Part shown: positions 1 through 20,200 of the stretch, piece by piece | How the letters are laid out: the number at the start of each line of letters is the position of its first letter | Numbering within the stretch: position 1 is the stretch's first letter | Assembly (NCBI GenBank): GCA_025980325.1 | Contig: JAICXQ010000001.1 | Span: 12,232-76,231 of the forward strand | Length of the DNA: 64,000 nucleotides | Reading direction: 5' to 3' | From: Frankiales bacterium | GTDB lineage: Bacteria > Actinomycetota > Actinomycetes > JAFAQI01 | Notes under the pieces: model-generated | What the model was told of the DNA's origin: nothing | Databases searched by the model: none | What the model saw: only the letters and a program-made list of their open reading frames with translations | Made by a program: the position numbers and the translations under genes

Positions 1-653
1 TATTTCCTACGAGCGCGCATTACACCGCGCTCGGCCACCTGCACCGCTGCCAGGACATTGATGGGTCATGCCCGATCTCGTATTCGGGCTCGCCCCTTGC
101 TGTCGACTTCGGCGAGGAGGACAACGAGTCCGTCGCGCTGGTGGTAAGCGCTACTCCGGATACCCGGGCCGCCACCCGTCGCATTCCCGTCATCGGCGGC
201 CGAACGCTGCTAACACTGCGTGGCACCCTCGACGAGGTCATCGCTGCCGGTGAACAGTCCGGCGATGCGTGGCTGCGTGTTGTGCTTGCCGAACCCGCCC
301 GGGCAGGACTTGGCGACCTGGTTCGGGAGAAGTTACCGAACGCGCTCGAGGTCCAGCTCGATGAGGAGCACAAGGTGCGACCCGGTCGAGCCCGGTCCGA
401 CCGGCCCAACCGGGCCGATCGGACACCGCAGGAGCTTTTCGCTGACTATCTCACCGAGTGCAACATCGACGATGCGCGGCTGCCGAAGTTATTCGCCCAG
501 CTGCTCGACGAAGTCACCGCGGCGCCCGACGCACCGGCAGAAGCGATCGTGCCCGTACAGGTGCCGGCGGCGGAGAAATCTGAGGCGCCGAAGCCACGAC
601 GGCGGCGCAAAGCCGACGTCGAATCCCAACCGGTACCGGCTGAGGAGAACTGA
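1..653 (+). CDS. sbcD: Exonuclease SbcD (Mre11-like), C-terminal part; the gene starts upstream of the window
   Basis: Frame 3 is open from the window edge to 653. The conserved phosphoesterase motif YTALGHLH is present (SbcD/Mre11 motif 'YVALGHIH'). The TGA stop overlaps the ATG of the next gene (ATGA at 651-655). Confidence 0.7.
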   Translation, partial: FPTSAHYTALGHLHRCQDIDGSCPISYSGSPLAVDFGEEDNESVALVVSATPDTRAATRRIPVIGGRTLLTLRGTLDEVIAAGEQSGDAWLRVVLAEPARAGLGDLVREKLPNALEVQLDEEHKVRPGRARSDRPNRADRTPQELFADYLTECNIDDARLPKLFAQLLDEVTAAPDAPAEAIVPVQVPAAEKSEAPKPRRRRKADVESQPVPAEEN

Positions 654-3091
654 TGCGGCCGCTTCGCCTGATGCTCGAGGGATTCGGTAGCTACCGAGAG
701 CCGACCGATATCGACTTTAACGATGTGAACTTCTTCGCCCTCGTGGGTCCGACGGGGTCCGGGAAGAGCACCGTAATCGATGGATTGTGCTTCGCCCTGT
801 ACGGCACCGTGCCCCGTTGGGGCAAGGAGAACGTCGTGAAATACGCGCTCGCCCCCTCGGCGAATTCGTGCCGAGTTTGCCTCGTGTTCGAAGTCGGTGG
901 TGCGCGCTACGCCGCAGCGCGGTTGCTCACTCGCGACGGCAAAGGCGTTGTGCATACGAAGGAAGCCCGGCTAGATCGCATTGACACGGCCGTGCCGGCC
1001 GCCGGTGATTTGACGGCCGTACTTGAAGCCAGCGTCGAACAATTGGCGGAGGGCGACCAGGTGACTTCTGCCGTTCGGACTCTGCTGGGTTTGAGCTATG
1101 AGCACTTCACGCAGTGCGTGCTCCTGCCGCAAGGGAAGTTTGCTGAGTTCCTACAGGCCAGTCCCGGTGACCGTCAGAACCTGCTCGTTCAGCTGCTCGC
1201 GTTCGGGGTTTACGAGCAGATCGGCCAGCTTGCCCGGCAACGCGCCCAGCTCGCCGAGAACAACCGCAAGCTTCTCGCGAATCAACGCGATGAACTTGCC
1301 GATGCGACCGCCGAAGCCGAAGATCTCGTCCGGGCGCGGGTCGACGAGATCACCGAACTGGCGGGAACGGTTGAGACGCAGCTGGCGGGTCTTGACGCCG
1401 CTCGCGTAAAGGCGCTAGACGCCGCGACCTCGGCGGGCGCCAACCGCACAGCAAGCACGCAACTTGGCGGCGTTCGCATTCCGAAAGGCGTTTCTGACCT
1501 GGCTGTCCGTATAAAGGGCGCCGACGAACAGTTGGTAGCTACACGAGCTCGGCGGGACACGGCGGAAACTGTTGAGGAGGAAGCTCGACTGGCTCGGGTC
1601 GAGCTGGGGGACGTCGAGCGATACCAGCGATGGCAAGCGGCGTACGCCGGGCGCGCCGAGGCGGAGCAGACGCTGGGAGTCCAGCAGGAGACGGTCGAGC
1701 ATCTCCGTGGCGCTGAAGACCGGCTTCGGGAGAACGTCACTGCAGCCGAGGCAGCAGTCATCGACACGGAAACCGCGTTAGCTGCCGCTCAGACCGCACA
1801 CGCAGCTGCCGCAGTCGCGGCAACGCTGAACGTCGGGGACGACTGCCCCGTGTGCGAGCAGAAGGTGATCACTCTTCCGCATCGCGAACCTCCCACCGAT
1901 CTGAAGATGGCAGCGGCGGCCGTGACTGCGGAGAAGGCCGAGCTGAAGAAGGCCAATACTGCAGCGCAGCACGCCGCTGTGAAGGTGGCGGCAGCTCAGA
2001 CCGCGGTCGACGTGACAAGTGCTGCTCTTGCCGCACATCTTGCAGCTCTAGATGGCGCGCCGTCGAGAGCGGATATAGACGTGGCGTTGGCCGCAATCGC
2101 GGCAGCCGATGCGGCGTTGTTGGCGGCTGGTGAGGACGCCCGCCGCGCTCGCTCGGCCGTGTCCGCAGCTGAGACCGCGCGCTCGAAGCTCGATCGCGCC
2201 GAGCAAGACTCTCGTGTCGAGCTCAACGCCGCCCGGGATGCTCTCGCTGCTCTCAGACCGCCGGCGCTTGCCGGCACCAATCTGGCCAATGACTGGGACG
2301 TCCTGCTCACATGGGCGGCTGAGGAACGCAGCCGCCGCGAAGCGGCGCAGCCTGAGCTCGATGGAATCGCGACCGCGGCAGGGAGGGAGGTCGCCGGGAT
2401 CGAAGACGTCGTCATCGACCTACTCGCCGAGCATGGCATCAACGACGTTGCGGACGTCGCTGCAGCTCCTGTTGCGTTGGCGACGTTACGAGCGCGTGCC
2501 GAAGCCGACCTCGCGAGCGTCAAGGCGAGCCGGGCGCGGGCGGCGCAGTTGGACCGCCGCATCACCGCGGCTGCGGACGAAGCCACAGTTGCGCGCATGG
2601 TGGGCGATCTGCTCAAGGCCTCCCAGTTCGAGCGGTGGCTGTGCGGTGAGGCGCTCGACTCACTTGTTACCGAAGCGTCGGCCACGCTGATGGAATTGTC
2701 CGGCGGACAGTACGAGCTCGACCGCACCGACCGCAACGAGTTCGTCGTCATCGACTACAACGATGCGGGCACGCAGCGTCCAGTCCACACGCTCTCGGGC
2801 GGCGAAACTTTCCAGGCGTCGCTCGCGCTTGCCCTCGCGTTGTCCCGGCAGGTTGTTGGACTCTCGGCTGGGATGAGAGACCTCGATTCGATGTTCCTCG
2901 ACGAGGGGTTCGGGACCCTCGACGAAACCACACTCGACACCGTAGCCAGCACCCTCGAGCGCCTGGCTGCGGACAAGGACAGAATGGTTGGCGTCATCAC
3001 ACATGTGCCCGCGCTCGCTGAACGCGTACCGGTGCAGTTCGTGGTCAGTCGCGACGGAACTTCCTCGCACGTGCGCAGGGTCCAGGTGTGA
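653..3091 (+). CDS. sbcC: SbcC/Rad50-like SMC-type ATPase (812 aa)
   Basis: N-terminal Walker A GPTGSGKST; central Ala/Glu/Arg-rich coiled coil with a CPVC zinc-hook motif (about nt 1845); C-terminal ABC signature LSGGETFQASLALALA and Walker B MFLDEGFGTLD. Translationally coupled to both neighbours. Confidence 0.85.
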   Translation: MRPLRLMLEGFGSYREPTDIDFNDVNFFALVGPTGSGKSTVIDGLCFALYGTVPRWGKENVVKYALAPSANSCRVCLVFEVGGARYAAARLLTRDGKGVVHTKEARLDRIDTAVPAAGDLTAVLEASVEQLAEGDQVTSAVRTLLGLSYEHFTQCVLLPQGKFAEFLQASPGDRQNLLVQLLAFGVYEQIGQLARQRAQLAENNRKLLANQRDELADATAEAEDLVRARVDEITELAGTVETQLAGLDAARVKALDAATSAGANRTASTQLGGVRIPKGVSDLAVRIKGADEQLVATRARRDTAETVEEEARLARVELGDVERYQRWQAAYAGRAEAEQTLGVQQETVEHLRGAEDRLRENVTAAEAAVIDTETALAAAQTAHAAAAVAATLNVGDDCPVCEQKVITLPHREPPTDLKMAAAAVTAEKAELKKANTAAQHAAVKVAAAQTAVDVTSAALAAHLAALDGAPSRADIDVALAAIAAADAALLAAGEDARRARSAVSAAETARSKLDRAEQDSRVELNAARDALAALRPPALAGTNLANDWDVLLTWAAEERSRREAAQPELDGIATAAGREVAGIEDVVIDLLAEHGINDVADVAAAPVALATLRARAEADLASVKASRARAAQLDRRITAAADEATVARMVGDLLKASQFERWLCGEALDSLVTEASATLMELSGGQYELDRTDRNEFVVIDYNDAGTQRPVHTLSGGETFQASLALALALSRQVVGLSAGMRDLDSMFLDEGFGTLDETTLDTVASTLERLAADKDRMVGVITHVPALAERVPVQFVVSRDGTSSHVRRVQV

Positions 3092-4056
3092 CGGCCCAGG
3101 CGGCGCCGCCTAGCGGATTCTCCGTAGACCCGTGGGACCCGGGGTACGGCCTGGCGTTCAGCAGTGACCTCGATGGCGGTGCGTTGGAGGAATCGAGCGC
3201 GCAGCTCAACCTCGCGGTGGAAATGCCGGCAGACGCGTGGGCTCCCGTCGATCCTGACCCGACCGTCGCGGTGCCGGACACGATCCTGTTCCTCGACGGC
3301 GTGCGCCGCATCGACGCTCGGGTCTGGGTCTACGGGAGTGACCCGCAGCCGGCGCCCGGCATCGCAGCGTCTTTCGCGGCGGGACTCGTCTGCTGCGACG
3401 GCGCGGCTCGCATTGTGGACGTTAGGGTCGGCCGCGGCCTCTTCACCGCCGCATCCGTGGCCGACATCGTTACCCGACAGGCGACTTATCCCGTTCGCGC
3501 CGCAACCGGAGGCAGTCTTGACGAGTTGTCGCTAGCCCTACAGCAGCGGCTTGCCGAGGCAGAAGTTGGGCTCGCGCTCGACTTTCGCGCTACCCACGCC
3601 ATCGGTGACGACCTGCTCGTCGTAGACGGTCCGTTACGCGGACGGACGCACCTGCCTCGCACAGTCGGCTACGTCAAGACTCACCACACTGCCTACCTAC
3701 CTGCGACACAAGCGGCAGTAGTAGCCGAGCTCGCGCCCGGTCAGCGGACCCCAGTGTTTTCAATGGGCACATCCTGGATCCGAAATTCTTGGTATCTGAG
3801 ACTGCCCGGCGCATCGGGTGCCCCGTGGTCCGGGGTCGTCCGCGTCGAGTGTTCTGCCGACCTCTCGCCAGTCGAGGCGGTACGGCTCGCTGCGGTCACC
3901 GCCACTGTCCTGCCGCCGCTAGCCAGCGCACCGCACAAGGACCCACGCGCGCCGCAGAACCTCGTGCCGATTGGCGGACTCGAGCGTGAGTTGCGGCATC
4001 GGCTGGGTGACACGCGACTGCTTTATCGAGCGTTGCGAGCCGCGGCAGCAGGCTAG
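3088..4056 (+). CDS. NurA-like (RNase H-fold) nuclease-domain protein, putative (322 aa)
   Basis: The GTG start overlaps the sbcC stop (GTGA at 3088-3091). Contains the motifs ILFLDGVRRID and LLVVDGPLRG, reminiscent of the paired DG(S)/DGsL acidic motifs of NurA 5'-3' nucleases. The ORF is protein-like, but the function is inferred from motifs only. Confidence 0.45.
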   Translation: MTAQAAPPSGFSVDPWDPGYGLAFSSDLDGGALEESSAQLNLAVEMPADAWAPVDPDPTVAVPDTILFLDGVRRIDARVWVYGSDPQPAPGIAASFAAGLVCCDGAARIVDVRVGRGLFTAASVADIVTRQATYPVRAATGGSLDELSLALQQRLAEAEVGLALDFRATHAIGDDLLVVDGPLRGRTHLPRTVGYVKTHHTAYLPATQAAVVAELAPGQRTPVFSMGTSWIRNSWYLRLPGASGAPWSGVVRVECSADLSPVEAVRLAAVTATVLPPLASAPHKDPRAPQNLVPIGGLERELRHRLGDTRLLYRALRAAAAG

Positions 4057-4117
4057 TGCCCCCGCGGAGCTCGGCACGCGGCGTGACAATCCCCGCCGGC
4101 GCGCGAGGCAAGGAATT

Positions 4118-7100
4118 GTGGACCGCACTGCGCCTTCGGCTCCGCTTCCGCCCCAGATGGGGGACGTCGCGAGCAAATTGTCAGTGGTGCGGCCGATACT
4201 CGCGTGCATGTTGACCGGCAATCAGCCACGGCCGCGGTGGACTCGGCTGGATGCCGCGCTGGCGCCGTTCGACGCGCTCTCGGTCGAGGTCTTGGCGCGG
4301 GCCGCGCTCGACTCGCCGTCGGCATCGCACTGGGCTGCCGCAACGGGCCTCGTGTGGGCGCGAGCGCTGGCACGGTCACCGCGCGGCATAGTCGTCGCCT
4401 CCGCTGAGGATCTGCCGAAGCTGGTCGGCGCGGGGGTAGCTGCATGGCCGGAAGCGCGCAACATGTCTGACTGGTGGCCTTCGGATCCCCGACTGGTCGT
4501 GAGTGCGCGAGTGCGGAACGGTCGGGTCAGGCTTCACCCCGGTCGGGTTGTTGAACCCCTGCGATTAGTACGTCGGTTGGAAAGAATCGCCTTTGCAACC
4601 GATGACGCGGTCTACGCGCGTCACGGGTTTCGGACCTCAGACCTGGTAGAGGTGGGGCTGCGCCTCGCGGATCTGCAAGTGACGGGGCTTGCGCCCGCGT
4701 GGTCACAAACGGCGCTACCCGAGCCGCCCTTGTTACGTATCCCGCGAGCGTCACCCTTCGACGTAGCGGAGCAGGTGCGCGCAATCCCGCCTTCGGTCAC
4801 AAGTGAGGAGATCACGGCTGCCGCGCGGTTGCGGGAGCGCGACCTCGTCGCCGATGCCTCGGCACTATGCACGGACCCGACGGCCGCCGGGGCTGCGTGT
4901 GAGTGGGCGACAACGGCGGTCCGTCAAGCGCATCAACCCGGCTGTTTAGCTGTCACCACCGATGCTGGCTTGGTGCCGGTTCCGGCGTCGCTAGTGCTGG
5001 AAGCGCTTGGAATAGCAACGGGCCGCCTGGCTATCGAGGCGGCGGGCGAGCCGTGGGTGCGTGAAAGATGGGCATACGCCAGCACGGCGGACCTCTGGGA
5101 AGTGCTCGGCTTGCCGTTCGTGGATGACGAGACTCCCATCCCAGTCGGCGGGATGCTGCGGATCGCGGAACGGCATCTCGCGAGCATCGACGTGGTCGCC
5201 GAACTTGCACCCGCCTCTGTACAGCCGGCTGCGGAGAACGCCGTTCATCGAGCGGCGTCGCGTGCAACCACGGAAGTGGCCGACGCAACAGGTGTTGCGG
5301 CGGACATGTCCGCCGACATGCTTCGGCTTGTGCTGATCGACGCGGCCGGTCGACTAGAACGGCTGAGTGGGGGAGCGGTCGTCGCAGTCACAGCCGACGA
5401 ATTCACACGAGTCTTGTCGGAGGCTGCAGACGGCCCAAACGGTCAAGATGAAGCGTGGGACTTCCTCCTTGATCTGCAGCGCGTTCCGCGAACCGTCGAG
5501 CTACATCCACCGGATCTCGTAGATGCGTGGCGGCATTGGCGTGAACATGGGTGGCTAGTCCCTCCCGAGCTAGACGTAGACGCCGTACCTGATGCCGCGG
5601 TCATGTTCGCCTGGCTCGCGCACGACCCGTCGTGGCCCGCGGCTGCGCAATGGGATGCGACCGAGCGAATCCTTGATGCAGCAAGACTGCCGCCGAAGGT
5701 CGCCTTCTGGGCACGGGATCTCGACGATCGTGGCGTTGTGACATTGTGGGCTCCGCCCGCGATGACAGGCGGCCGGCCGACTTGTTACGCGCTGCATCCG
5801 GACGGGCTCGTCATCGGTGCGACTGGTGATCTGCCCGGTGCTGGAATCCCCGACGGTGCCGGAGCTCTTCCGATCGTCGTCGCCACAGCTCTGCGCGATG
5901 CGCTGTTCGCCCGTCCTGCAGCGGTCGCAGCACTGAATCTTGACCCTTTGACACCGAAGCGAGTCCTGGTGGGCGTCGACCTCGACGAAGGTGACGGCAT
6001 CGCAGTCGCGACCGCGGACGGGCTGCCCCCACTGATCCTTCTCGGGCCGATGCTGCTCGCTGCAACGGCAGCCGATCCCATGGCGATGCACCATACGCTC
6101 GGTGCCGCGCTCTCAACTGCCCTGCGCCTCGGCTGCGGAGACGTCGATATGGACGCATTTTCTGCAGCGTGGAACGCCGGCCCCGTTGCGCTGGTAGCGG
6201 GAGTGCGCGCGGGCCCCGTCGACCGGTCTCCGCGGCGAGAGTTGCCACGCACGCGCGCCGCGCGGATGCGGGCGCACCAGGCGCATGCAGCCGCAGTGCG
6301 TGCCGCCGGTGGGGACGTGCCACCGGGTGAGCTGACGGGCGACGAGGCCGCCGAAATATGTCAGCGTCTGCTGATCCCTGCTGCAGACCGAGCACTACGG
6401 GACGCAATCGCTAGGTTCGATCGCGATCTGCTCCTCCGCGCAGCGGCGACATGGGCCGATGAGGCACACGCTCACCGTGCGCAGTTGCGAGACAGGCTCG
6501 ATCTAGCGCTTGCTGCGCCTTGGCGTGACGAGGTGCTAGCCGACCCGAGCGACTACGAGGACGACCCGGACCAAACAAGGCCGTTGCATGTGCTTATTGA
6601 AACCGCAATCGCGGCGAATCCGGCTCCCGAATCCGCGGGTATCGCTCCAGATCGCATTGACCTGGCTCGACTTGCCGAACAGGCGCGACTTGTCGCGTGG
6701 GTCGGCGCAGCATCAGACGGGTACCGCCGTGGTCTCAACACGCTAACTGTCACGGTGGGACCAGGTGCCCTCACCGGCGTGTCCATGCCGGCATCGGACC
6801 CAAGCATCGAGGCAACCGTTGATATGGCTGCATACGTTGCCGCTTCTAATGTCGATGCGCTCGCCGCTGCGGCCGATGAAGCTCGCCTGCAGGATCCGGA
6901 CGAGGTTGAGCGACTCCTCGCGGAGGCGGACGGAACTGAACGGCCTTTCGAGCGGTTCACCGACTTGCCGGACCTGCCTGGGTCGCTACGAAGTCTTGAC
7001 CAAACGATGCGAGTCACTCTCGGCGCTGGGTTCGGCGCCATCTCGGCAGTTCTTCGGACCTGTATCGATATGGCGCCGCCACCGATCGGCGTGCTATCAG

Positions 7101-7876
7101 AGCCCATTCCCGTCGCAACACTTCGCGACGACATCGCGGGGTGGTCAAGACTGCCGCCGGAGGAAATCACGGCCGCGATTCGACTACTCACTGTCGACAG
7201 CGACCTCGCTCGTGGCGATCGCACCGGTGCGTGGGAGGTCGAACGGCGCGACGCGAGGCTCAATGCACGGCCCCTCATTGCTGTCACCGGCGGGCTGCTC
7301 GTCCTGCCGCACCTGTGCACGACCGCTCGCGACATCTTCCTCGGCCGACTTGCTGACGGCCGACTTCCCTGGCCCGTCCGTGACGAACGTCTGCGGCTCG
7401 CGGTCGACGCGTTTCGCCGCCATGTCACCGCGCAGCTCGAGCGCACGGTCGGCGAGAAACTCTCTGAGCTCGGCTTGCCGCATGTGATGAACGTCAAGGA
7501 GAACCGAGCCGCTGCTCTTGGGATCCCCAATCTGCCCGGCGAGATCGACGCACTCGCCGTCGAGGCCGCCTCGGAAACGCTTTGGGTGATCGAGGTCAAG
7601 CATGCCCGTCGTGCCGTGAGCGCGAGCGAGATCCGCGAACGGGTGAGGAAATTCATCGAGCCAAACGGTTACATAGACGTACTGCTCCGCAAGACAGCTG
7701 TCATCGCTCCGCATGCCTCAGCGGCTGCCGCACTGGCCGGCGCCATCGAAGAGCGACCTTGGCGGGTCGTTCCGCTCATGGTCACCGCAGCCGTCGAGCC
7801 CGCTGCGTTCGCGTCGTCGCGGCGCGTGCAATTCGCGACACCGAGAACATTGGCGGTCGCGCTGCAAGCGACCTGA
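4118..7876 (+). CDS. Large Ala-rich hypothetical protein (about 1250 aa) with a C-terminal PD-(D/E)xK nuclease-like motif
   Basis: The long ORF (3971-7876) overlaps the previous gene. The likely start is GTG 4118 (aagga RBS) or ATG 4157. No Walker A/P-loop was found. The C-terminus carries GEIDALAVEAASETLWVIEVKH (D..E.K, restriction-endonuclease-like core). Same strand, 62 nt after the NurA-like gene. Confidence 0.55.
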   Translation: MDRTAPSAPLPPQMGDVASKLSVVRPILACMLTGNQPRPRWTRLDAALAPFDALSVEVLARAALDSPSASHWAAATGLVWARALARSPRGIVVASAEDLPKLVGAGVAAWPEARNMSDWWPSDPRLVVSARVRNGRVRLHPGRVVEPLRLVRRLERIAFATDDAVYARHGFRTSDLVEVGLRLADLQVTGLAPAWSQTALPEPPLLRIPRASPFDVAEQVRAIPPSVTSEEITAAARLRERDLVADASALCTDPTAAGAACEWATTAVRQAHQPGCLAVTTDAGLVPVPASLVLEALGIATGRLAIEAAGEPWVRERWAYASTADLWEVLGLPFVDDETPIPVGGMLRIAERHLASIDVVAELAPASVQPAAENAVHRAASRATTEVADATGVAADMSADMLRLVLIDAAGRLERLSGGAVVAVTADEFTRVLSEAADGPNGQDEAWDFLLDLQRVPRTVELHPPDLVDAWRHWREHGWLVPPELDVDAVPDAAVMFAWLAHDPSWPAAAQWDATERILDAARLPPKVAFWARDLDDRGVVTLWAPPAMTGGRPTCYALHPDGLVIGATGDLPGAGIPDGAGALPIVVATALRDALFARPAAVAALNLDPLTPKRVLVGVDLDEGDGIAVATADGLPPLILLGPMLLAATAADPMAMHHTLGAALSTALRLGCGDVDMDAFSAAWNAGPVALVAGVRAGPVDRSPRRELPRTRAARMRAHQAHAAAVRAAGGDVPPGELTGDEAAEICQRLLIPAADRALRDAIARFDRDLLLRAAATWADEAHAHRAQLRDRLDLALAAPWRDEVLADPSDYEDDPDQTRPLHVLIETAIAANPAPESAGIAPDRIDLARLAEQARLVAWVGAASDGYRRGLNTLTVTVGPGALTGVSMPASDPSIEATVDMAAYVAASNVDALAAAADEARLQDPDEVERLLAEADGTERPFERFTDLPDLPGSLRSLDQTMRVTLGAGFGAISAVLRTCIDMAPPPIGVLSEPIPVATLRDDIAGWSRLPPEEITAAIRLLTVDSDLARGDRTGAWEVERRDARLNARPLIAVTGGLLVLPHLCTTARDIFLGRLADGRLPWPVRDERLRLAVDAFRRHVTAQLERTVGEKLSELGLPHVMNVKENRAAALGIPNLPGEIDALAVEAASETLWVIEVKHARRAVSASEIRERVRKFIEPNGYIDVLLRKTAVIAPHASAAAALAGAIEERPWRVVPLMVTAAVEPAAFASSRRVQFATPRTLAVALQAT

Positions 7877-8177
7877 CAGGCGAAGGAGCACTTGGAATGA
7901 CGGCGCGCCGCTAGATGCATCCAGAGAAGTCCTCGGCGGAATCAGCAGTCGCCTTCGCCGTTGACGATTCAACGTCGCGCCTAGTCGAATGCTGCCTAGC
8001 CCAACGTTCGCGGGACGGGGAGCGTTAGCTGAGTCCGGCCGCAGAGGACCCATGAATGTGCCCCGCGGTGGGGGCCTGGCTGGCTGGCGAGACAATCCGC
8101 CGGTTGGTGCAGTCTCTCGGGCAGAACCCAGGCGAACCCGCTCGACCTCCGGCGCGGGCGGCGATTGGATCGCGTCT

Positions 8178-9058
8178 ATGGACATGACGTTCGCTGCGTA
8201 TCTCGCTGAGGCTCCGACTCACGAAGGTGGTGAAGTGGTCCCTGACCAAGTGCACTGGTTGCGGTATGTAGAGGCCGTGCTCGAGGTCATCGACGAATAC
8301 GTCAGGGACACCGGAGTGTCAGAGCACCACGCCCGACTGCAGTTTGCGGAATTCTTCGTCGGTGAGTTTCTCGGCGACGCGTGGATCCAGAGGCATTTCC
8401 GCTCATATGCCGGCTCGACCGCCAAGGACCACACGCTCTTCAAGTATCGCCTATGGCACTTGGCCGCCTGCTCTTCACGCTCCAGAGCTACCCATGGTTT
8501 GAGCAACTCCTCGACAATCTATCCAATCGCAGTCTCCCGGGGGCTCAGTTCGAGGCTGAGGTGGTGCACCTGCTCATGCACTCGCCCATTCGGGCGAATC
8601 TTCGTGCACCGACGGGCACTAAGGGTCAAGATTATGACATCGACTTGGGCGCCGAACCGTTGCTCATCGCGGTTGAAGTCAAGGCGAAGCAGGACTCGAC
8701 CCCCTTCTCTGTCTCGACGGTGCAGTCGACGTTGAGGACGGCGCGCAAGCAGCTACCTCCGCATGGTCGAGGGCTCGTGTTTCTGCGTGTGCCCTCCAGC
8801 TGGCTTGAGGACTCCTCCTACCGAGAGGAGATTGAGCCGATCCTTACGAACTGGTTACGGAACACGAGTCGCGTTCAAGCCGTCATCTTTGTTTGGGATG
8901 AAATGACGGTGACCTCCGAGGCGAAGCATCATTATGAGCCGCGACAACGGATCGTTCGCGCGAACTCGGTCGATTCCGATGTCAGTCAGTTGCTTGACTT
9001 GCTCGATGCGGTTTGGGCGAGCAACTTTGATCTCGTGGCTCCTGCATCCGCTCTATGA
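8178..9058 (+). pseudogene. PD-(D/E)xK (restriction-endonuclease-like) protein gene interrupted by a -1 frameshift near 8445-8465 (or a sequencing error)
   Basis: Frame 0 is protein-like from MDMTFAAYLAEAPTHEGG to FKYRLWHLAA, then degenerates. Frame 2 becomes protein-like from ALGRLLFTLQSYPWFEQLL and contains QDYDIDLGAEPLLIAVEVKAK (D..E.K). Local GC is lower than the flanks. Confidence 0.4.
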
Positions 9059-9422
9059 CCGCCCTACGCCCAACCAGATCGATGTCACGGGCTTGCGGTG
9101 GTTAGCGCGCGAGGTCGAGCAGCGCTGTGCCGGGCGAACGGACCCCACGCGTCACAACGACGGCTAGGCGATCAAGCTGTGCAATCAAATCGCAGCCCCC
9201 GACTCTGTGCGGATGGATTGCCCATCGTCCGATGGCGCCAAGGAGGTGAAGTAGAGAGGCCGAGGACCCACGATGTCGGCGCGGAAGTGGCGATACCGGG
9301 GTGTTGGGCCGCGCTATTTTGCGGGGCCGCCCCTCCGGCCTCAAGGGCGCTCGCTTCGCTCGCGTCGCTGCGCGACCGCCTTCGGCGGCCCTTGACCCCG
9401 GAGCCTCTGCGGCCCCTACCGG

Positions 9423-10631
9423 TCAGGGAGTGCGGGCCGGGGCGAGCCCCTGCCCGCAGGACGCGCGGCCCGCGACGTGTAAGTCAATGGAAAGTGTCCC
9501 GGTCTGCCATGCGATCGCGCCGGGCGAGCCGTTTCTACTGTGCGACCGCCCCGGCATAAGGTTGTCGAGGACAGCCGCAGTTTCCTGCAGGTGCTCCGGA
9601 AACAGGTGGCCGTAGGTGTCCATCGTCTCGACGATGGACTTGTGGCCGAGCCGGGCCTGGATGACCTTTGGGTGGAGCCCGGCGGCGATTAGGGACGACG
9701 CGTAGGTGTGCCGCAGCGCGTGCATGCCGTACTCCTGCGGGAGGCCGGCGCGGCGTAGTGCGGGTTTCCAGACAGAGTCGTTGAACGACCCGCGGCGCCA
9801 GACTTCGCCGCGCGGGTTGGTGAACAGCAGGCCGTCCTCGCCAGTGCCGTACCGCTCGATGTGTGCGGCGAGGGCGTCGACGACGAACTTCGGCAACGGC
9901 AGCAATCGGCGCGACGACGGGGTCTTGAGCCGGTCGCTGATGACAGGAACCCCGCCGCCCATCGGTGTCTTGGCCTGCGCCTCGACCCACAGCTCGCGGC
10001 GCAGGAAGTTGACCGCTCGCAGCCGCACTCCGAGCAGCTCGCCCTGGCGCATGCCGGTGCCGACGCCGAGCGCAAGGATCGCGTAGTGGTCCGGCCGGGC
10101 CTCGAGCAGCAAGGACCCGACCTGCTCCGGCGTGAGGATCGACAGCTTCGACGGCGGGATTGCAGGCAGGTTGATCTTGAAGCACGGCGTCGTCGTGAGC
10201 AGCCGGTCATACACCGCCGAGCGCAGCATCATCGCGAGCAGCGCGTAGATGTGCCGGACCGTGCGCGGCGCGAGTCCCTTGCCGACGAGCGTGCCGACGA
10301 ACGCGTTGATGTCCGTGCGCCGCAGCGACGACATCGCGCGGCCGCCGAGGTGGGGGAGGACCTGGCACTTCAAGTAGGTGTTGTAGCCGGCGAGGGTGGA
10401 CGGCTCGACCCGCAGCGACGCGAGCCACGCCGGTGCGTACTCGGCGATGGTTATCCGCGCGTCGCCGCGGAACACGTACGTGCCGTCGATCGCGGCGACC
10501 TGCGCGCGGGCGAGCGCCTGCTCGGCGAGCTTCAGAGTGGAGAACCGCTTGCGGACCATCCGGCCCTCGACGCGGTAGGTGATCTCGTAGGAGAAGCCGC
10601 GCCCGTGGGTGATCTTGCGGGGTCGAGCCAT
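9423..10631 (-). CDS. int: Tyrosine recombinase/phage-type integrase (402 aa)
   Basis: N-terminal SAM-like domain with the catalytic domain carrying the R..HxxR..Y residues (HALRHTYAS, LGHKS, MDTYGHLF). Lies in the lower-GC islet. Confidence 0.9.
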   Translation of the reverse strand: MARPRKITHGRGFSYEITYRVEGRMVRKRFSTLKLAEQALARAQVAAIDGTYVFRGDARITIAEYAPAWLASLRVEPSTLAGYNTYLKCQVLPHLGGRAMSSLRRTDINAFVGTLVGKGLAPRTVRHIYALLAMMLRSAVYDRLLTTTPCFKINLPAIPPSKLSILTPEQVGSLLLEARPDHYAILALGVGTGMRQGELLGVRLRAVNFLRRELWVEAQAKTPMGGGVPVISDRLKTPSSRRLLPLPKFVVDALAAHIERYGTGEDGLLFTNPRGEVWRRGSFNDSVWKPALRRAGLPQEYGMHALRHTYASSLIAAGLHPKVIQARLGHKSIVETMDTYGHLFPEHLQETAAVLDNLMPGRSHSRNGSPGAIAWQTGTLSIDLHVAGRASCGQGLAPARTP

Positions 10632-10645
10632 GACGCCTCCGGGTG

Positions 10646-10671
10646 TGACATCGGTGTGACACCGGATGTCA
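10646..10671. promoter_or_regulatory. Imperfect 26-bp palindrome (tgacatcggtgtgacaccggatgtca) 15 nt upstream of the integrase start; candidate operator or arm-type site
   Basis: Seen directly in the sequence. It also contains the direct repeat gtgtgaca twice. Confidence 0.3.
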
Positions 10672-11241
10672 GCTGGTCCCGGAAAGTACCTCTGACCTGC
10701 GGCAACTCCCGCCGCCCGAAGCCGGCATAACGCCCCGGCTTACAGGCCGACTCGTCCGCCGCCTCGCTTTGGTCCGCACACACTTGCGCGGTTCCGCCGC
10801 TCCGGACCCCACCTCGGCAAAGCGGGGCGGATCTGACATGCGTGGGTGGTCCGGAAGGATTAGCTCGATCTCTCACGAGTCGCAGTGTTCTGATCACGTT
10901 CGGTTCGTCTCATGCGATAGCTCGGCGATCTTCTCCGATATGCCGCAGTTGTATGAGCGGAACAGATCAGATCTTCAATAGCTAGGGACTAGCTCCATCG
11001 GGCCATTTCTTTGCCGCGTATCTGTTGGCGGTTCCAAAGGTCTAGTCAAGGGGTGTTGCTGGTCGTACCTTCAGTCCGCTGGGCCGAGAGATTAACGCTG
11101 GTAGCCACTTTTTCGCGGCAAACCGGGTCGACCCAGGTCGTACGCCGGGGGGCGTAGCACGCAAGACGGACGATGCCCGGATGCGTGTCGAGTGCGTAGT
11201 GAAGCGGCGGTCGACACCGCACGAGCGGCTCGGCGGGACCG

Positions 11242-14200
11242 ATGGTCTTCAGGGGGGATGTTCTCGTGATCCGGTCGAGGAAACCGCATTCACGTACAGT
11301 CGCGAATCGCGCCGTCGCACAGGCGATCGGCAAGACTCTTTTGGCCTTCACCGTCGGCGTGTCGGCGACGGTCGTGTCGGCACCGCTCGCCGCCGCGTCC
11401 ATCCCGACCACGGTCCCGCAACTGCAGCCGGTCGACGGCGAATCGCTGGCGGACACGAATAGCGGCGCGGATGCTATCGCTGCATCCGCCACGTCGTCCG
11501 GGTTGACCGAACGGCCGGACACGTGGATGCAGACGAGTCGCACCTTCACCGCCGCAAATGGAATTAACACGACGGTGATCGGTCTCACTCCGCTCAACTA
11601 CCAGGACGCGGGCGCCACGTGGCAGCCGATCGACGACGAGCTCACTGCGGACACGACGACGGGCTATGCGTGGCGTAACACCGCCGACGCCTACAGCGTC
11701 GAGTTCCCGGCGAACCTTCTGTCCGGGCCGATAAGGGTCAGCAACAACGGCGGTTGGGTCGCGTTCCAGATCGCCGGTGCGACCGGCGCAGGTGTGGTGA
11801 GCGGCAACACAATCACGTATGCGAACGCGCTGCCGGGTGTGTCACTGACTTACGCGGCGACTCCGCTCGGGTTGAAGGAGACGATGACGCTGGCGGACGC
11901 GTCGGCCTTGTCCGCGTTTACCGTCGTCGTGACCAGCAGCGACGGGCTGACGACCGCGACCCAGGTCGACGGGAGCACCGGCTTCGTCAACGCGACCGGC
12001 GATCTGATCGCGTCACTCGCGAAGCCGTGGATCACCGACGCGAACCAGGACATGAGCGGCCTCGACGACGCACTCTCGTCGTCGTTGACGCCGGACGGGA
12101 CGAACGCGTGGCTGGACGCGCTCACGGTGTCCGCGACCTGGTTGACCGCACCGAGCCGCTCGTGGCCGGTCACCATCGACCCCACGCTGAAGACCGAGCA
12201 GGACTTCTCGACCGACTGCCTGATGTTCTCCGGTCACCCGACGAGTGGTGTGTGCGCTCAGAATCCGGCCGGCGTGGGTTACCACGCCGACGATTCGCTC
12301 ATCCGCCGCGACGTCATGGAGTTCTCGGTGTCGTCGATCCCGTCCTCCGCCACGGTCACGGACTCGGAGCTCGAGCTCGACGAGGGGCTCACCGCCTATG
12401 GCCCGGTCGAGCTCCAGATCTACCGGAACGATCAGAGCTTCAGTGCGGTGAACGCCACCTGGGACGACGCCGATGCGCATACGGGAACGGCCTGGATCTC
12501 GACCGGGCGTGGCGGCGACCCGGTCGGCAGCGCTTTGATATCGACTCCGTTCGGGTGCGACCCCACCGGCCCGAGTTGCGCCGGCGTGAAGACGTTCAAC
12601 ATCGCCGGCGCGACCCAGAACTGGGTGAACGGGACGTGGGCGAATACCGGCATCCTCTTGCGCGAACAGGTCGAGACCAATGACGGCGTCGTGCAGTTCA
12701 ACGGCAGCAATTCCCCGACCGGCCCGCCGAACATCGTGGTGACGTGGGATCGCAACCCTGACCAGCCGACCCTCGTATCGCCCGCCTCGGGTGCGACCGG
12801 CCTGTCGCCGAGCCCATCGCTGCAGGCGAACGTCACCGACCCGGATGGCGGCGACCTGTACGCGAGGTTCTTCGTCCGCACGCACGGATCGAGCACCTGG
12901 GACATTGCGAACGGCGTCATCATGCCGGCACCGAACGCCGACGACTCGAACGGCGTGGCCTCCGGCGCGACCGTGACGTACTCGCCGTCCCTCTCGCCCG
13001 GCGTGACCTACGACTGGACCGCACAGACGTGGGACGGGACGCTGTTCTCGACGACACCGACGGCGCAGTCGTTCACGGTCGCGCCGCTGCCGCCGCAGCC
13101 GACCGTGTCGAGCTCGACTCATCCGAGCCCCGGCACCTGGTACACCGCTCGTAACGCGACGTTGAACTGGAGCGCGGGCAGCGGGATGACGGGATACTCC
13201 TACGTTCTCGATCAGCCCGGGTCCGGATCGACCACGTGTCCGAGCACGACACCGGATACGACATCGGAAGGCACCGCGACCACTGTTTCGTACGCGAACC
13301 TCGCCGACGGCATCTACTGCTTCCATGTGCGCGCCCAGAACATCTCCGGTTGGGGGCCGGCGTCCAACACCTTCGAGATCGACATCGACGGCACGACACC
13401 GGGCGCGCCGAGCGCAGTGACCTCGACCCCGGCACCGAACAGCAACGGATGGATCACCTCCGGCAACTTCACAATGAACTGGTCCGTGCCGACGCAGACG
13501 CAGGTCTCGGGGATCGCCGGCTACTCGTACGTCCTCGACCAGCCGGCGATCGGCAACACCTGCCCGCCGACGATTCCCGACACGACATCGGAAGGCGCCG
13601 CCGCGTCCGTGAGCTACACGGGCAAGGCAGACGGTGCGTGGTGCTTCCACGTCCGCGCCGAGAGCGGCGCCGGGCTGTGGGGCCCGGCGGCGCACTACAC
13701 GGTCAGCATCGACGCAACGCCGCTCACGGCACCGCAAAACCTCACCTCGAACCCGGCGCCGAACGCGACCGGATGGCTGACGATGAACAGCCCCACCATG
13801 ACCTGGTCGGCTCCGGCCAGCACCTCGGGGGTCACCGGTTACTCGTACGGCCCGCTCGATCATCCCGCGTCCGGTTCGACCACCTGTCCGACCACGGCTC
13901 CCGATACGACATCGGAGGGCACGGCCACCAGCGTTTCGTACAGCAATCTCGCCGACGGCATCTCGTGCTTCCACGTCCGCGCAGAGAACGCGGCAGGTGT
14001 CTGGGGTGACACCGCGCACTACACGTTGCGCATCGACAGCGTCGCCCCGACATCGCCGGCGAACCTGACGACGACTCCGTCCGCGGACGGGCTGTCCCAC
14101 GCGACCCGCACCATCGCCGCATCGTGGAGCGCGGGAACCGATGCCACGTCCGGCGTGGCCGGTTACTACTACACGTTCGACAACGTCGCGACCCGTCCCG

Positions 14201-17200
14201 CCAACACGCCGTTGTCTGCGGACACGTTCACGGCGACGACGACGGCGACGCTGTCGAACTCGACGGACGGTGTGTGGTACGTCCATGTGCGCACGATCGA
14301 CGCGGCCGGCAACCTCAGCGGTTACGCCAACTACGGCCCGGTGATTCTCAACAACGTCAGTCCGATCATCAACAAGACGCTCAACACAGCGGCGGCGAAC
14401 GGCTACTACGGGCGCGGCCAGTACCTCCAATACACGGTGACGGTGACCAACCCGTCGACCCTTGCGCCGTCGACGATCACTGGCTTCAGCGACACTCTCC
14501 AGCCGGGTCAGCTCCTGATCGGCACGGACATCCTGCTCAGCCGCTCCGACGACGGAAGTACCGCGGCGCGCCACTGCCTGCGGATCACCGGATCCGAGCA
14601 GTGCACGATCAGCACCGATGGGACGACGATCACGCTGCCGAACTTCACCCTTCCGGCCGGCGTCTCGCTGCAGCTCGTCTACACCACGCTCGCGACCGGG
14701 GTGGAGAACGGCTGCATGATCACGTCGAACACCGCGACCGCAGCCGATGCCGCGGGCAGCGCGACCACGAACCCGGTTTCCGCCACCATCTGTGACACCG
14801 GTCTCGGAATCGAGCCCTGGTGGAGCTATGTCTCGACCGCGGTCGGGCCTCAGTCGACCGCGCAGGTCAACGTCGCCAACGGCAACCTCGTCGTGCAGGC
14901 GACCGACTCCACCCCGATCAACGCGCACGGTCGCCTCGGTTACGTGATCCGCCGTACGTACAACAGCCAGGACACGACCGCGCTCACGCTGCCCGGAAGC
15001 CTCGGCGCGGGCTGGCAACTCAACGTCGGCGCGACCGACGATCTCGCCGGCGCCGGCGTGACGCCGACGAGCCTGTCGGTCCCGACCGCCAACAGCGTCG
15101 CGGCACCGCTGGGGATCACACTTATCGACCGTGACGGCACCAGGCACGTCTTCACCTACCGCAGCGCGAGCGTCGCGATCACGTCGCCGGTCGACGTGAC
15201 CTCACTCGCCGGCGGATCGCCGATCCATCAACTCGTGCCGGTGAACCCGCTGCTGCGTCCGTCGAGCCTGAGCGGGTCGGCAGCCTTCGCCCACGTGTGC
15301 GTCGACGCGACCTACCAAGCACCTGCGGGCGTACACCTCGCATTGTGGCGTTACGTCGGCACCAACGGCAGCACCTGCTCCGCTGCGCTCAATGATTCGA
15401 ACGCGCGGATCCTCGGCTTCACGACGATGCGCCCGGACCGGCTGCGCTCCGAGTTCGACGCCGCCGGTCACCTGCTCGACCTCGTCGACGGTTCCGGCGT
15501 CGACCTCCGCTACGCGTACGGCACGACCGGCGAGCTCAGGTCGATCAGCGAAGCACGTGACTGCACCGGCGCGGTCGGCACCGCGACGTGTCGTGGCGTC
15601 GTCGTCACGTACTCGAGCGACCAGACGAACGCGTGCCCCATTCCGGCCGGCGCGGCGAGCAGCGAGTGCGTCATCGATCCGGCCGGCCGTCGCACGATTT
15701 ACGCGTTCGACAACGCCGTTCCGAAGCATCTGGTCGAGGTCGACAACCCGGACGACAACCCGTCCGGCACCCGGGACCGCTTCCAGTACGCCTATCAGGG
15801 TTTCGGGGCGAGCTGTGGCGCCGCCGCGGCCGGTCAGCTGTGCACCGTCGTCGAACCGCGCTTTGACCCGAAGACCGGTGCTGTGATCAGCACGACGTTC
15901 GGATACACCGCGCAGAGCCCGCTCGGCCTGCCACGCGTCACGTCCATCACCGACCGCCGCCATGTGATGACGACGCTGGCCTACACCGGCGCGCCGTCGA
16001 CCGCTACGACCGTGGACGACAACGGTGAACGGACGAGTTACCTGTCGATCGACTCCAGCGGCCGGGTCGGCGAGGTCGACCAGGGGGCCACCACCGCGAG
16101 CCCGCTGAGCATCACCCGCTACACCTGGGACACCGCAGCCAATCCCTGCACGTACGTCTCCGGCACGGTGCAAGGCACACACACGGCGTGGGCCAGGCCG
16201 GACAACAACCTGTGCCGGGTGACGAGAGCGCACATCAGCGGGGCGTCGGACGAAACCACGTCGTTCGCCTATACCCCGGAAGGGATGCTGCTCACGTCCC
16301 GGCAGGTCATGTCGTCCGGGCCGGACCTCTACCGCACCTACGCTTACGCGACGCAGTATGTCCGCAACGGAAGCGCCACGATCACCGCGACGGACTCGGT
16401 GTCCGGCAGCGGCGACGTCGCCGTCGGCAACCGGTCGAGCGCCATCGGCGACGGTGGCTCGGTGGCCGGCGACTCCTCGGTCGTCTATGCACTGACCGAC
16501 CTCGTCGCAAGCTTGTCACCGCGCGGCAACGTTGCCGGTGCGACGGTTGCCAACTTCCGCACGGATTACACGGTCGCGGACAGCACTGCTGCCGAACCCG
16601 ACGTGAACCCCGGCGGCAACGCCTGCACGGCACGCAACAGCGGCTCGGTCTGCACCGTGTCCGCGCCGTACTCCGGATCCTCCAAGAGCATCACGCAGTA
16701 CGACTACGACAGCTTCGGGCAGAAGGTCAGCGCGACAGTTCCCAAGCTCTCCTACGAAACCCCGCCGAGCGGGCAGACCTACCAGTACACCTACACCTAC
16801 TACGCCGACAGCTCGACCGACCACGAGACGCACAAGACCAGCATGGGCGGATGGCTGGAAGCCGTCACCGACCCGGCCGGCCACTACGTGTTCTTCACCT
16901 ATGACGCGGCCGGCGATCGCACCCGCACGTGGGACCGCAACGCAACCACGGCGAGCGGCGATTCGCTTTCGGCGATGGAGGCGGCGGTCGCGACCGGTTC
17001 CGGGCCGGTCGGCGCTTCGGTGACCTTGTACGCAAACCCGTTCAACTCGATGCCGTGGCGCTACCTGCTCCTCACCGAGGAACCCGTCGGCCCGCTCACG
17101 ACCTATGCGGTCGATGTCGACGGCAACGTGACGGCAATTACGACGAACGCGGGCCACACGACGACACAGACGTTCGACGAAGCGGGCAACCTGCTCACTC

Positions 17201-20200
17201 GTACGACGCCGGCGGAGCCGGGACACCCGACGACGAACACCTACGATGCGTTCGGGAACCTCGCCACGACCACGAGCCCGAACAACGTCGTCACTGCGTA
17301 CCGCTACGACGCACTCAACCGTCGGGTGACGACGTACACCGACCGGGGTAGCGCAAGCAGCGGCACGTCCAACCCGGGCGGCGGCTGCTTCGTGACCGAC
17401 ACCGGTGCGAACGCGGTCCCCGAGTACGCGGTGAACGAGGTCGTCTGCGCCGCTCGTGCGAGCTACGACGAGTTCGGCAACATGGTCTCGAGCACCGACG
17501 GCGCGAACCACACCACGACGTACACGTACGACACCGCGAACCGTCGGGTCGACACGTTGACGCCGCGGACCGACACAGTCAGCTACACCACGCGCACGCT
17601 CTACGACGCCGACGGCGACGCGATCGACACGTGCCCGCCACGCCAGTTCACCGACGGCGGGGCGTCGACGTGCTCCGACACCAGCCCCGGCGTCTACAGC
17701 ACCCATCGAAGCTTCAGTGAAGCGGACCGGTTGCTGACGACGACGACATATCGCGCGCGGCCGACCTCCGTGCACGGCGACCCGGCGAACACGCCGGCAA
17801 CGAGCACCGACACCACGACGTACACGTACGACGCCGACGGCAACCGGACCAGCGTCGCCGACCCCAACAATCATGTGACGACGGACGTGTACGACTTCCT
17901 CGACCGCAAGACCAGCGAGCTGACGCCGCGGACGAGTGGAGTCAACAAGCGCACGGTGTACACGTACGACGCGAACGGCAACGTGCTCAGCACGACCGCG
18001 TCGGGCCTCGCGCCGGTGAACGTCGGGGGCACCCCGCTCAATGTCGGCAGCCCGTACTCCGCGTCGAACCCCTATCCGCTGCCGGCCGACGTGACGACCT
18101 ACAGCTCGATCACACTGACCGGCGGCGCCTGGATCACCGTGCCGGCGAACAGCGCGCCGGCCGCGATCAGCATCACCGTCTCGTCGACCCTGTCGATCTG
18201 CAGCACCTGCGGCATCACTCTCGACGGTGACGGCTGGGCCGGCGGCACCCCGGCGGCAAGCGCCCTGACAACGGACGGATTCACGGTGAGCGGGAGTGGC
18301 AGCGGGCCCGGCGCCGGCGCGGGCGGTACCAGCGCGGCGACGGCCGGCGGTGGCGGCGGAGGCGCCGGCTACTCGGCGGCGGGGACCGACGGCTTCGGTG
18401 GCGGCAGCCCCCTCGGCGGCGCGGGTGGCAACGCCGGCTCGCCGTACGGCGACGCGACCATCGGCGGTGAGACGTCCACTCAAGCCGGCTCGGGCGGCGG
18501 CGCGGGCGGCACGATCGAGCCGTCGACGCTCGGAGGCGTGGGTGGTGCCGGCGGCGGCATCCTGCACGTGACGGCGAACCAGATCATCCTCGACGGTTCG
18601 ATAACGGCACGCGGCGCGAACGGTGCGGACGGCCAGGTCGTCCAAGGCGCGCTCGGTGCGGGTGGCGGCGGTGGCGGCTCGGGTGGCGCGATCTGGCTGA
18701 GCGCCCCGCAGATCATCACCGACTCCGGCTCGATCGGTCACGTCGACGTCAGCGGCGGTGCCGGTGGCAGCGGCACTCCGGGTGGCACTGACGGCTCGGG
18801 CGGCGCGGGTGCGCCGGGTCGGGTCCGGTTCGACACCGACGAGCTCAGCAGCAGCATCGTGACGACCGCCGGGTCGACGCAACGGACGACGTTCGGGCGG
18901 ACCACCGCGTACAGCTACGACTTCGACAACCGGCTCGTCGACACTGTGATCGGCGCGTCGTCGCCGAACGCGGCGGCCGACGGTCCGACCGGCAGCGACG
19001 GCGGGTCCAACGTGCGCACCCGACTCGTCTACGACGACGAGGGGAACGTCGTGGGCCGCTTCGACCCGCGTGCCTTTGCGGCGTCGGTGACGAGCCCGGA
19101 CGTGCGGTACGAGTCGGTTGCGGTCTACGACGCCGACCATCGGCTGACCGACGTCTACCAGCCGTACAGCGACTCGAGTGGCGCGTCCGATCCGAACGGT
19201 GCCCCGTCGCAGTGTCCGGACGCGGCCAGTCTCGGGATCAGCGCCTATCAAGGCCTGACCGGTGTGCACGTCTGTCGTCTGCACTACGGGTACGACCACG
19301 ACGGCAACCGCACACTGACGCAGCTGCCGACGTACGACAGCAGCGACACGACCCGGGTGTACACGGCTGCTTACACTCCGGACGACCTGCTCGCGTCGAC
19401 GAGTGTGCCGGACCCGTCGGTGACGAGTCATGCGGCTGCACTCCGTGCGGAGGCATACACCTATGACGGTGCCGGCCGCCGCCTGACCGACCAGGAGTTG
19501 CCGGACACCGGTGGCCCGACGACCACGACGACGTACACCGCTGACGGCTTGGTCGCCACGGTGACGCCGCCGACGGGCGGCGCGAGCCATCTGACGACGT
19601 ACGGGTACGACCCGAACGGCGCGCAGGTGAGTGTGACGATGCAACAGGACGCGTCGACCACCCGGACGAGCTTCACCGACTACAACAGCGACGGCAGCGT
19701 CTATGCGAACGTCGACCCGGCCGGAAATACGACGAGCTACACCTATGACGCGGCGGGCAACCAGATCGCGGTCTATGGCCCGTCGGCGAATGCCGGCGAT
19801 GCGACCAACCCGAACCACCTGCCGACGGTGTATTCGTACTTCGACGACAACTTGCTCGCGACGACCTCGACGCCGACGGTGTCCAGTGGTGCGACTCGCC
19901 GCCTGACGACGTACGGCTACAACCTGGGCGGCGACAAGACCAGCGTCGACGTCGACTACACCAACGCGAGCGGGACAGTGACGACCGACGGTGCTCCGCA
20001 GCGTTTCGGGTACTACCCGGACGGGCGGATTGAGTCGTCAACCGGCCGCAGCGGCGGGTCGCAGGCGTTCAGCTACGACGCGGCCGGGCACCCGTTGTCG
20101 AGCAGCGACACGGCGAACGGCGACACGGTCACGACCGCCGCGACGTATTACCTGGACAACGCCATCCGCACGGTGAGCGAGTCGGGGACTGTGGTTCCGA

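Follow-up and report, generated by a model that had tools for sequence, protein, structure and literature searches.

A conserved, probable repair operon and a putative Upx-family gene side by side in a Frankiales bacterium

Genes at the start of the window

The stretch of DNA analysed here (the window, 64,000 nucleotides (nt)) comes from the Frankiales bacterium assembly GCA_025980325.1 (contig JAICXQ010000001.1, positions 12,232 to 76,231), and positions 1-7876 are filled by four open reading frames (ORFs) on one strand, which are the 3′ part of sbcD, sbcC, a gene for a NurA protein of 322 amino acids (aa) and a giant gene. A preliminary description of this DNA had correctly identified the four same-strand genes and had joined them into one translationally coupled module lacking HerA, with the giant protein taken as an additional nuclease. 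It is highly probable that the region instead comprises two functionally independent neighbouring units, namely the distal part of a herA-sbcD-sbcC-nurA repair operon and a horizontally acquired, divergent defence gene of the Upx family. The features of the region are the following.

1..653, + strand: 3′ part of sbcD (Mre11-type nuclease subunit), identified by SbcD_C and NCBIfam SbcD matches; the N-terminal phosphoesterase domain lies beyond the window edge
653..3091, + strand: sbcC (Rad50-type ATPase, 812 aa, CPVC zinc hook at residue 398), identified by Pfam, NCBIfam and motifs
3088..4056, + strand: nurA (322 aa, NurA nuclease of bacterial type), with which the conserved operon ends, identified by a profile match to PDB 7f6d_H
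4057..4156, no strand: non-coding spacer between nurA and the Upx-like gene, with insertions and deletions (indels) in relative L004; synteny with genomes lacking the giant gene stops here
4157..7876, + strand: predicted Upx-like single-protein nuclease (1239 aa) with large N-terminal and middle domains and a C-terminal PD-(D/E)xK domain, identified by AlphaFold2/Foldseek and profile
7547..7600, + strand: predicted PD-(D/E)xK catalytic core of the Upx-like protein, with D1131 (7547-7549), E1146 (7592-7594) and K1148 (7598-7600)

Only the C-terminal 216 aa of SbcD are contained in the window, and the translation of 3-653 matches Pfam SbcD_C (E=6.6e-8; 33.3 bits, cutoff 24.4) and NCBIfam SbcD models. 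The full-length SbcD of a 96%-identical relative (contig L010) has 428 aa and carries both the Metallophos and SbcD_C domains. The sbcD stop codon (651-653) and the sbcC start codon (ATG, 653-655) share one nucleotide in the sequence TGATG and are preceded by a GAGGAG ribosome-binding site; the overlap at 651-655 had thus been placed correctly in the preliminary description and only its motif, given there as ATGA, is different. The GTGA overlap between sbcC and nurA at 3088-3091 is present as described. SbcC carries a Walker A motif (GPTGSGKS at residue 32), the CPVC hook, the signature LSGGE at 714 and a Walker B motif (DEGFG at 750), and scores above the Pfam cutoffs for AAA_23, SMC_N and SbcC_Walker_B. 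It matches the NCBIfam sbcc model with E=9e-78, yet falls below the curated cutoff (262 vs 478.5 bits), which is consistent with a short coiled coil. Length, hook and ATPase motifs all bear out the earlier view of a short Rad50-like protein with a zinc hook, and the ratio of non-synonymous to synonymous substitution rates (dN/dS) of sbcC against L010 is 0.17.

The 322-aa protein had been likened to NurA on account of paired DG acidic motifs, and this assignment holds. A profile of 15 homologues matches Deinococcus radiodurans NurA (PDB 7F6D, chain 7f6d_H) over residues 44-320 with E=4.4e-28 and the NurA-like protein TM1739 of Thermotoga maritima (1zup) with E=4e-5. The single sequence from the window lies below the threshold of Pfam PF09376 (17.2 bits vs 21), and a precomputed PF09376 match exists for many of its close homologues. 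The aspartates of the LDG and VDG motifs, D70 (FLDGVRRID) and D180 (VVDGPLRGR), are invariant among the 15 homologues and align with the motifs VVDGKPR and LQDGPVR of the D. radiodurans protein. Homologues form more than 6000 clusters, the best 120 listed being 70-100% identical, and the dN/dS of nurA is 0.08. Judged by this profile homology, the 322-aa protein is a genuine bacterial NurA with predicted nuclease activity.

The herA-sbcD-sbcC-nurA operon in Actinomycetota

Conservation of the gene order was surveyed with one genome per species, giving 80 loci in which HerA, SbcD, SbcC, NurA and the giant protein were each sought by tblastn. A contiguous herA-sbcD-sbcC-nurA block is present in 61 of the 80 loci, including those of Streptosporangiaceae, Pseudonocardiaceae, Nonomuraea and Thermomonospora, and sbcC adjoins nurA in all 79 loci that have an upstream flank. 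The remainder consists of eight loci too short to judge, nine in which sbcD is separated from sbcC, and two without sbcD and herA (L019 and L093, where neither gene was found within 8 kb). In the nine split loci, all from uncultured Actinomycetota metagenome-assembled genomes (MAGs; L018, L021, L025, L026, L030, L036, L037, L038 and L040), 0.7-4.3 kb of other ORFs, in part oriented the other way, lie between sbcD and sbcC-nurA, and no herA was detected before sbcD in those loci that have 2-3.6 kb of flank. Arrangements without an adjacent herA therefore do exist among Actinomycetota. No downstream gene family is common to more than 10 of the 80 loci, which indicates that nurA ends the conserved block. 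Across families and orders, identity is 62-88% for HerA and 56-87% for NurA. Positions 1-4056 are the distal three genes of this vertically conserved actinobacterial operon, which is predicted to act in double-strand-break repair.

The apparent lack of HerA is very probably an artefact of the window edge, as herA lies immediately upstream of sbcD in the 61 genomes, in Oryzihumus leptocrescens and in contigs L010-L013, which are 95.8% identical to window positions 1-7854. In O. leptocrescens, sbcD, sbcC and nurA are preceded by a gene for a 614-aa protein that matches D. radiodurans HerA (7f6d_B) with E=2.3e-144 and is identified as HerA. By this comparison, the herA gene of the source genome very probably lies just upstream of the window edge, and a four-gene module "without HerA" is not supported.

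The operon can be set beside several known systems. It shares with the archaeal herA-mre11-rad50-nurA end-resection operon the same four protein families and, in relatives, an identical gene order, and its SbcC has the zinc hook and ABC-ATPase motifs of Rad50/SbcC; it differs from the archaeal operon in that its proteins are bacterial-type SbcD and SbcC rather than archaeal Mre11 and Rad50, and in that its herA falls beyond the window edge and carries a frameshift in the closest relatives. As in the canonical E. coli-type sbcDC operon, sbcD precedes sbcC, the two are translationally coupled and the catalytic families are identical, whereas here the operon has four genes, with nurA downstream and (as seen in relatives) herA upstream, and SbcC has 812 aa and a much shorter coiled coil than the approximately 1045-aa E. 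coli protein. To our knowledge, herA-nurA in Deinococcus and Thermus is not linked to sbcCD. At the protein level the likeness to the Deinococcus HerA-NurA pair is close (NurA E=4e-28, Oryzihumus HerA E=2e-144, with aligned LDG/VDG aspartates), and the D. radiodurans complex has been characterized by structure and biochemistry as a pair of end-resection enzymes (PMC9960219; PDB 7F6D). Homologues of NurA/HerA from Actinobacteria already appear in a review (PMC8708640), and among bacteria Oceanithermus is on record as having a herA/nurA-sbcD-sbcC cluster (PMC5448004). The claim that genes beyond sbcDC mark an undescribed resection variant does not survive these precedents, that is, the archaeal arrangement and the reported linkage of HerA/NurA and sbcDC. 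A search of the accessible literature found no experimental study of the actinobacterial operon.

By analogy with the archaeal and Deinococcus homologues, SbcCD (Mre11/Rad50) would recognize and open DNA ends, the hexameric HerA translocase would feed the DNA into the NurA dimer, and NurA would degrade the 5′ strand and leave a 3′ tail for RecA.

The giant gene and its resemblance to Upx

The preliminary description had also coupled the giant gene to nurA through a third overlap, which would require a start at TTG 3971, GTG 3986 or GTG 4007. In a relative with 88% nucleotide identity over the shared region (L004), the stretch from the nurA stop codon to approximately position 4125 contains two separate 1-nt indels, which place any upstream extension in another reading frame, so that its protein sequence is not preserved. 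Starts at TTG 3971 and GTG 4118 were rejected because L004 does not keep their frame. Position 4157 is the first at which all four relatives share a start codon (ATG in the window, GTG in the others), and the giant gene most likely starts there on this comparative evidence. Its product would then have 1239 aa, not about 1250 to 1300 aa, and roughly 100 untranslated nt would separate it from nurA, a spacer that carries non-triplet indels in place of an overlap.

The giant gene is also separated from the operon by its distribution. It occurs in none of the 80 surveyed loci and follows nurA only in relatives with at least 88% DNA identity (L004 and L010-L013), and nucleotide similarity to a Mycobacteriales MAG whose NurA is 87% identical (L014) stops at 4046, at the end of nurA. 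Of the two genes said to extend sbcDC, nurA is thus conserved beside it and the giant gene is not. Homologues of the giant protein at 25-34% identity sit elsewhere, either beside genes for a DUF3644 protein and an SNF2 helicase or beside a gene with a helix-turn-helix (HTH) domain. More distant members are found next to the DUF2637 and Replic_Relax genes of a conjugative element in Micromonospora eburnea and, in an Acidimicrobiales MAG (L095:11822-19002), beside a 1798-aa NACHT (STAND) protein and AbiEi/AbiEii. The NACHT neighbour in the latter calls to mind the reported occurrence of Upx beside Avs-type sensors. As far as gene content and sequence comparison indicate, the giant gene is an independently and horizontally acquired stand-alone gene, unrelated to the operon.

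The protein encoded by the giant gene belongs to a large, mostly unannotated family. Its ORF is 18.5% alanine, contains no P-loop and has the motif GEID...EVK at residues 1128-1148 (counted from ATG 4157), in agreement with the alanine-rich protein with a C-terminal PD-(D/E)xK core described earlier in all respects save its length. No Pfam match was obtained for this protein or for 34 members of its family, and the sole library matches are two weak ones, to the NCBIfam Upx equivalog NF042954 (19 bits, cutoff 1900) and to PADLOC Upx (E=0.005); only six of the 34 members reach E<1e-3 with the curated Upx HMMs. A word-indexed homology search returned only five relatives, whether it started from the single sequence or from the 34-member profile. 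An exhaustive hidden Markov model (HMM) search of 1.84 billion representatives, with a profile built on an N-terminally trimmed alignment, returned 1474 clusters at E<1e-3 and 337 at E<1e-30, mostly full length at about 1200 aa. The apparent rarity of the family is thus a search artefact, probably caused by its alanine-rich composition. The named members that were looked up (from Acidimicrobiales, Micromonospora and Salinispora) are all annotated as 'hypothetical protein', and those of the approximately 1500-cluster family are so far from Actinomycetota.

The relationship to Upx emerges from profile and structure comparisons. The 34-member profile matches a single PDB chain, 9wuf_A (Upx), with E=1.9e-26 over chain residues 548-1235, in the middle and C-terminal domains. 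An AlphaFold2 model built from the 34-sequence alignment (predicted local distance difference test score 87.2, predicted template modelling (TM) score 0.88) was compared with the PDB by Foldseek, the structure search that had been proposed for this protein, and gives one significant match, again 9wuf ('Cryo-EM structure of Upx'; E=2.5e-23, probability 1.00). This match is full-length, with TM scores of 0.56/0.53 over 1297 aligned columns at 14% identity. GEID...EVK (D1131/E1146/K1148) aligns exactly with GDID...ECK of 9wuf (D1161/E1176/K1178), the experimentally defined active site of Upx (PMC13099982, PMC13601566), and in the 34-member alignment the D and K of D...ExK do not vary, while conservation of the E reaches at least 90%. 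The giant gene is under purifying selection, with dN/dS of 0.25-0.29. The alignment indicates that the protein ends in a real PD-(D/E)xK nuclease domain, with predicted activity, and the model and profile together place it, most plausibly, in the Upx family as a very divergent member. With the Upx HMM score below its cutoff, the protein was filed as a divergent Upx-family homologue ("Upx-like") and not as an Upx equivalog. Homology, the full-length fold match, conservation of catalytic residues, neighbourhood statistics and purifying selection are what the analysis shows.

Upx is a single-protein anti-phage system that depends on its nuclease for defence. The large terminases of diverse phages activate it through their ATPase domain, and recognition is predicted to occur by beta-augmentation in its N-terminal sensor (PMC13601566; PMC13099982). 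For SeUpx, DxR exonuclease residues have also been described in the N-terminal region. It has been reported to have no other structural relatives (PMC13099982), its homologues are spread across many phyla at identities as low as 16% (PMC13601566), and some of them adjoin Avs STAND proteins (PMC13601566; PMC13099982). The giant protein resembles SeUpx (PDB 9WUF) in size (1239 vs 1272 aa) and in lacking an NTPase motif, and shares with Upx the predicted three-domain fold (N-terminal, middle and C-terminal domains), the aligned D...ExK residues and a stand-alone gene in mobile or defence contexts. It is unlike Upx in its low identity, its failure with the equivalog HMM and its high-GC, alanine-rich character. 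Given the homology, the giant protein should work in a similar way, as a sensor of a phage protein coupled to a PD-(D/E)xK nuclease. Following Upx, the large N-terminal sensor region would bind a phage protein (in Upx, the large-terminase ATPase domain), binding would release the C-terminal Mg-dependent nuclease (D1131/E1146/K1148), and the freed nuclease would degrade DNA and abort infection. A role in defence is the best reading of the giant protein by this analogy, and for both units we infer the biochemical activities, the trigger and the anti-phage phenotype from characterized relatives.

These results bear directly on the original proposal of one module, either a new resection variant or a defence system derived from SbcCD, in which the giant PD-(D/E)xK protein would take the place of HerA and act together with SbcCD and NurA. 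The four genes do share a strand, no terminator-like site separates nurA from the giant gene, the arrangement is kept in L004 and L010-L013, and herA is frameshifted in L010-L012, all of which would fit a single module. The adjacency is nevertheless confined to the close relatives named above and absent from the 80 other genomes, the distant homologues of the giant gene never adjoin sbcCD or nurA, and the nurA junction has no overlap and an indel-bearing spacer, leaving the giant gene outside translational coupling. The giant protein was also considered as a HerA substitute and rejected, since a protein without a P-loop or other ATPase motif cannot replace a translocase, and its full-length structural match is to a protein known to act alone. 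The one-module model is largely refuted by gene-neighbourhood statistics and has become very improbable; of the original pair of suggestions, a defence role is retained for the giant protein and a new module is not.

Variable island and defence context

To the right of the operon, the giant gene opens a variable island in which it is followed by 1.45 kb of lower-GC cargo and then by a tyrosine integrase, and a large toxin gene lies beyond.

7877..9305, no strand: variable cargo that separates the Upx-like gene from the integrase, with lower GC and a candidate ORF at 8381-9058, delimited by comparison with L010
9423..10631, - strand: tyrosine integrase at the end of the variable island, with Pfam matches to Phage_integrase (E=2e-20) and Phage_int_SAM_3
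11242-22401, + strand: RHS-repeat polymorphic toxin of 3719 aa (RHS repeats E=6e-37, DUF6531, Y_Y_Y)

The integrase, a modest GC dip (0.60 at 8-9 kb) and the RHS toxin are all present, as the preliminary description had it in noting an integrase-bearing low-GC islet and a polymorphic-toxin island nearby. The cargo has no counterpart in the 96%-identical L010, where three other genes on 2.5 kb take its place, and the integrase region (9306-10764) is 89% identical to L010, with similarity ending beyond it. The cargo ORFs have no Pfam or PADLOC match. The candidate ORF on the + strand (225 aa) contains 'DYDIDLGAEPLLIAVEVKAK', which resembles a small PD-(D/E)xK motif. To the right of the integrase, the DNA differs from that of L010, which carries a 478-aa gene there, and the RHS protein has a variable C-terminal tip, in keeping with a polymorphic toxin. 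No tRNA gene was found in 1-24000, no convincing att-type direct repeats around 3900-11400 and no promoter-like site in 3000-9500, and the boundaries of the island are thus drawn only from comparison with relatives.

The integrase next to the giant gene raises the question of whether a protein with the Upx fold could serve a non-immune function, for example in maintenance of the mobile element or as a DNA-processing nuclease of the integrase island. Such a function would agree with the Replic_Relax/DUF2637 neighbours in Micromonospora and with Upx-specific HMM scores far below threshold. Defence genes, however, commonly ride on such elements, the homologue beside NACHT/STAND and AbiE genes matches the reported Upx-Avs association, and the three-domain architecture and catalytic triad are conserved, so that a non-immune role appears quite unlikely and immunity remains the preferred function of the Upx-like protein.

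Defence genes also occur around the operon in relatives. In L010 a Shango system lies directly upstream of the operon on the minus strand (L010:1-4175), divergent from herA, and consists of SngA (TerB_N/TerB/TerB_C, PADLOC E=9e-92), SngB (E=2e-179) and a DEAD/Helicase_C protein; the operon of this genome thus has defence genes on both flanks. In O. leptocrescens (L001/L002) a NOV_C-domain protein is encoded upstream of herA, and nurA is followed by genes for an HNH-repeat protein, a GmrSD_N protein and DEAD/SNF2-type helicases, further defence-like genes within a different actinomycetotal order. These flanks leave a small chance that the site is a defence hotspot or that the operon itself is defensive. 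In the latter case the herA-sbcD-sbcC-nurA block would act against phages or plasmids, as an SMC- and HerA-based system akin to Lamassu, Wadjet or HerA-effector pairs, and would anchor a defence island of which the Upx-like gene is one of several members. The Shango system and the Oryzihumus flanks are compatible with this, as are the PADLOC matches of SbcC to mad3 (E=1e-27) and LmuB (E=2e-18). These matches, however, reflect generic similarity of SMC heads, the flanking defence genes come from just two sampled lineages, and the nearest characterized homologues, those of D. radiodurans (7F6D), are end-resection enzymes (PMC9960219). The strong conservation of HerA and NurA across families and orders, with a stable gene order, is typical of housekeeping genes and not of fast-turnover defence genes, and argues for housekeeping repair. 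A defensive operon is accordingly unlikely, if somewhat less so than a non-immune giant protein.

Several observations weigh against the division into a repair operon and an independent Upx-like defence gene. On the side of the operon, the window begins inside sbcD and herA is not visible in it, and the nine of 80 loci with a split sbcD/sbcC and no herA upstream make the four-gene order common and not universal. Furthermore, herA in L010-L012 lacks about 37 nt at '...AQVTV|VDLHNLPDRAQR|FVVG...', which shifts the frame and splits the gene (L010:4271-6243, likewise in L011 and L012, corresponding to the DNA just upstream of window position 1) into ORFs of 487 and 172 aa. Both pieces are still 87-92% identical to Oryzihumus HerA, which points to a very recent pseudogene or an assembly error, and unless the lesion is an assembly artefact this lineage may be losing HerA. 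At the junction, no terminator-like site was found between nurA and the giant gene, and read-through co-transcription from one into the other may occur. On the side of the giant protein, the HMM score far below the NCBIfam cutoff, the identity of 14% and the marginal PADLOC match make the similarity to Upx a remote one, with a trigger or substrate that could differ, and profile homology is confined to Upx residues 548-1235, the match to the N-terminal sensor being one of predicted structure only.

Carried further, these points would combine into a picture in which the largely unannotated family of about 1500 clusters is a distinct lineage of Upx-like immune nucleases missed by current HMMs, perhaps with a trigger other than the terminase. 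The placement of its gene behind the operon, with Shango on the other flank, would then be no accident, the locus being a defence hotspot or the operon processing the ends made by the nuclease, and the herA frameshift would mark a lineage in which SbcCD-NurA works without HerA. This combination is unlikely, about as much so as a defensive operon, and two independent neighbours remain the favoured interpretation.

Both the actinobacterial operon and the Upx-like gene are members of already known kinds, and the novelty first proposed for the locus dissolves; a false lead is removed, in that no new machine of Mre11, Rad50, NurA and a giant nuclease without HerA exists here. At the same time, the complete herA-mre11-rad50-nurA operon of archaeal type is found widely across Actinomycetota with strong conservation, and the existence of culturable carriers (Actinophytocola oryzae, Nonomuraea spp. 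and Oryzihumus leptocrescens) makes its role testable beside other bacterial end-resection pathways. A large family of proteins of about 1200 aa, called 'hypothetical' wherever a name was seen, has the active site and predicted fold of Upx and yet is missed by the Upx models of NCBIfam and PADLOC, and an added profile for it would improve defence annotation in high-GC Gram-positives, while the family offers divergent test cases for phage sensing by Upx.

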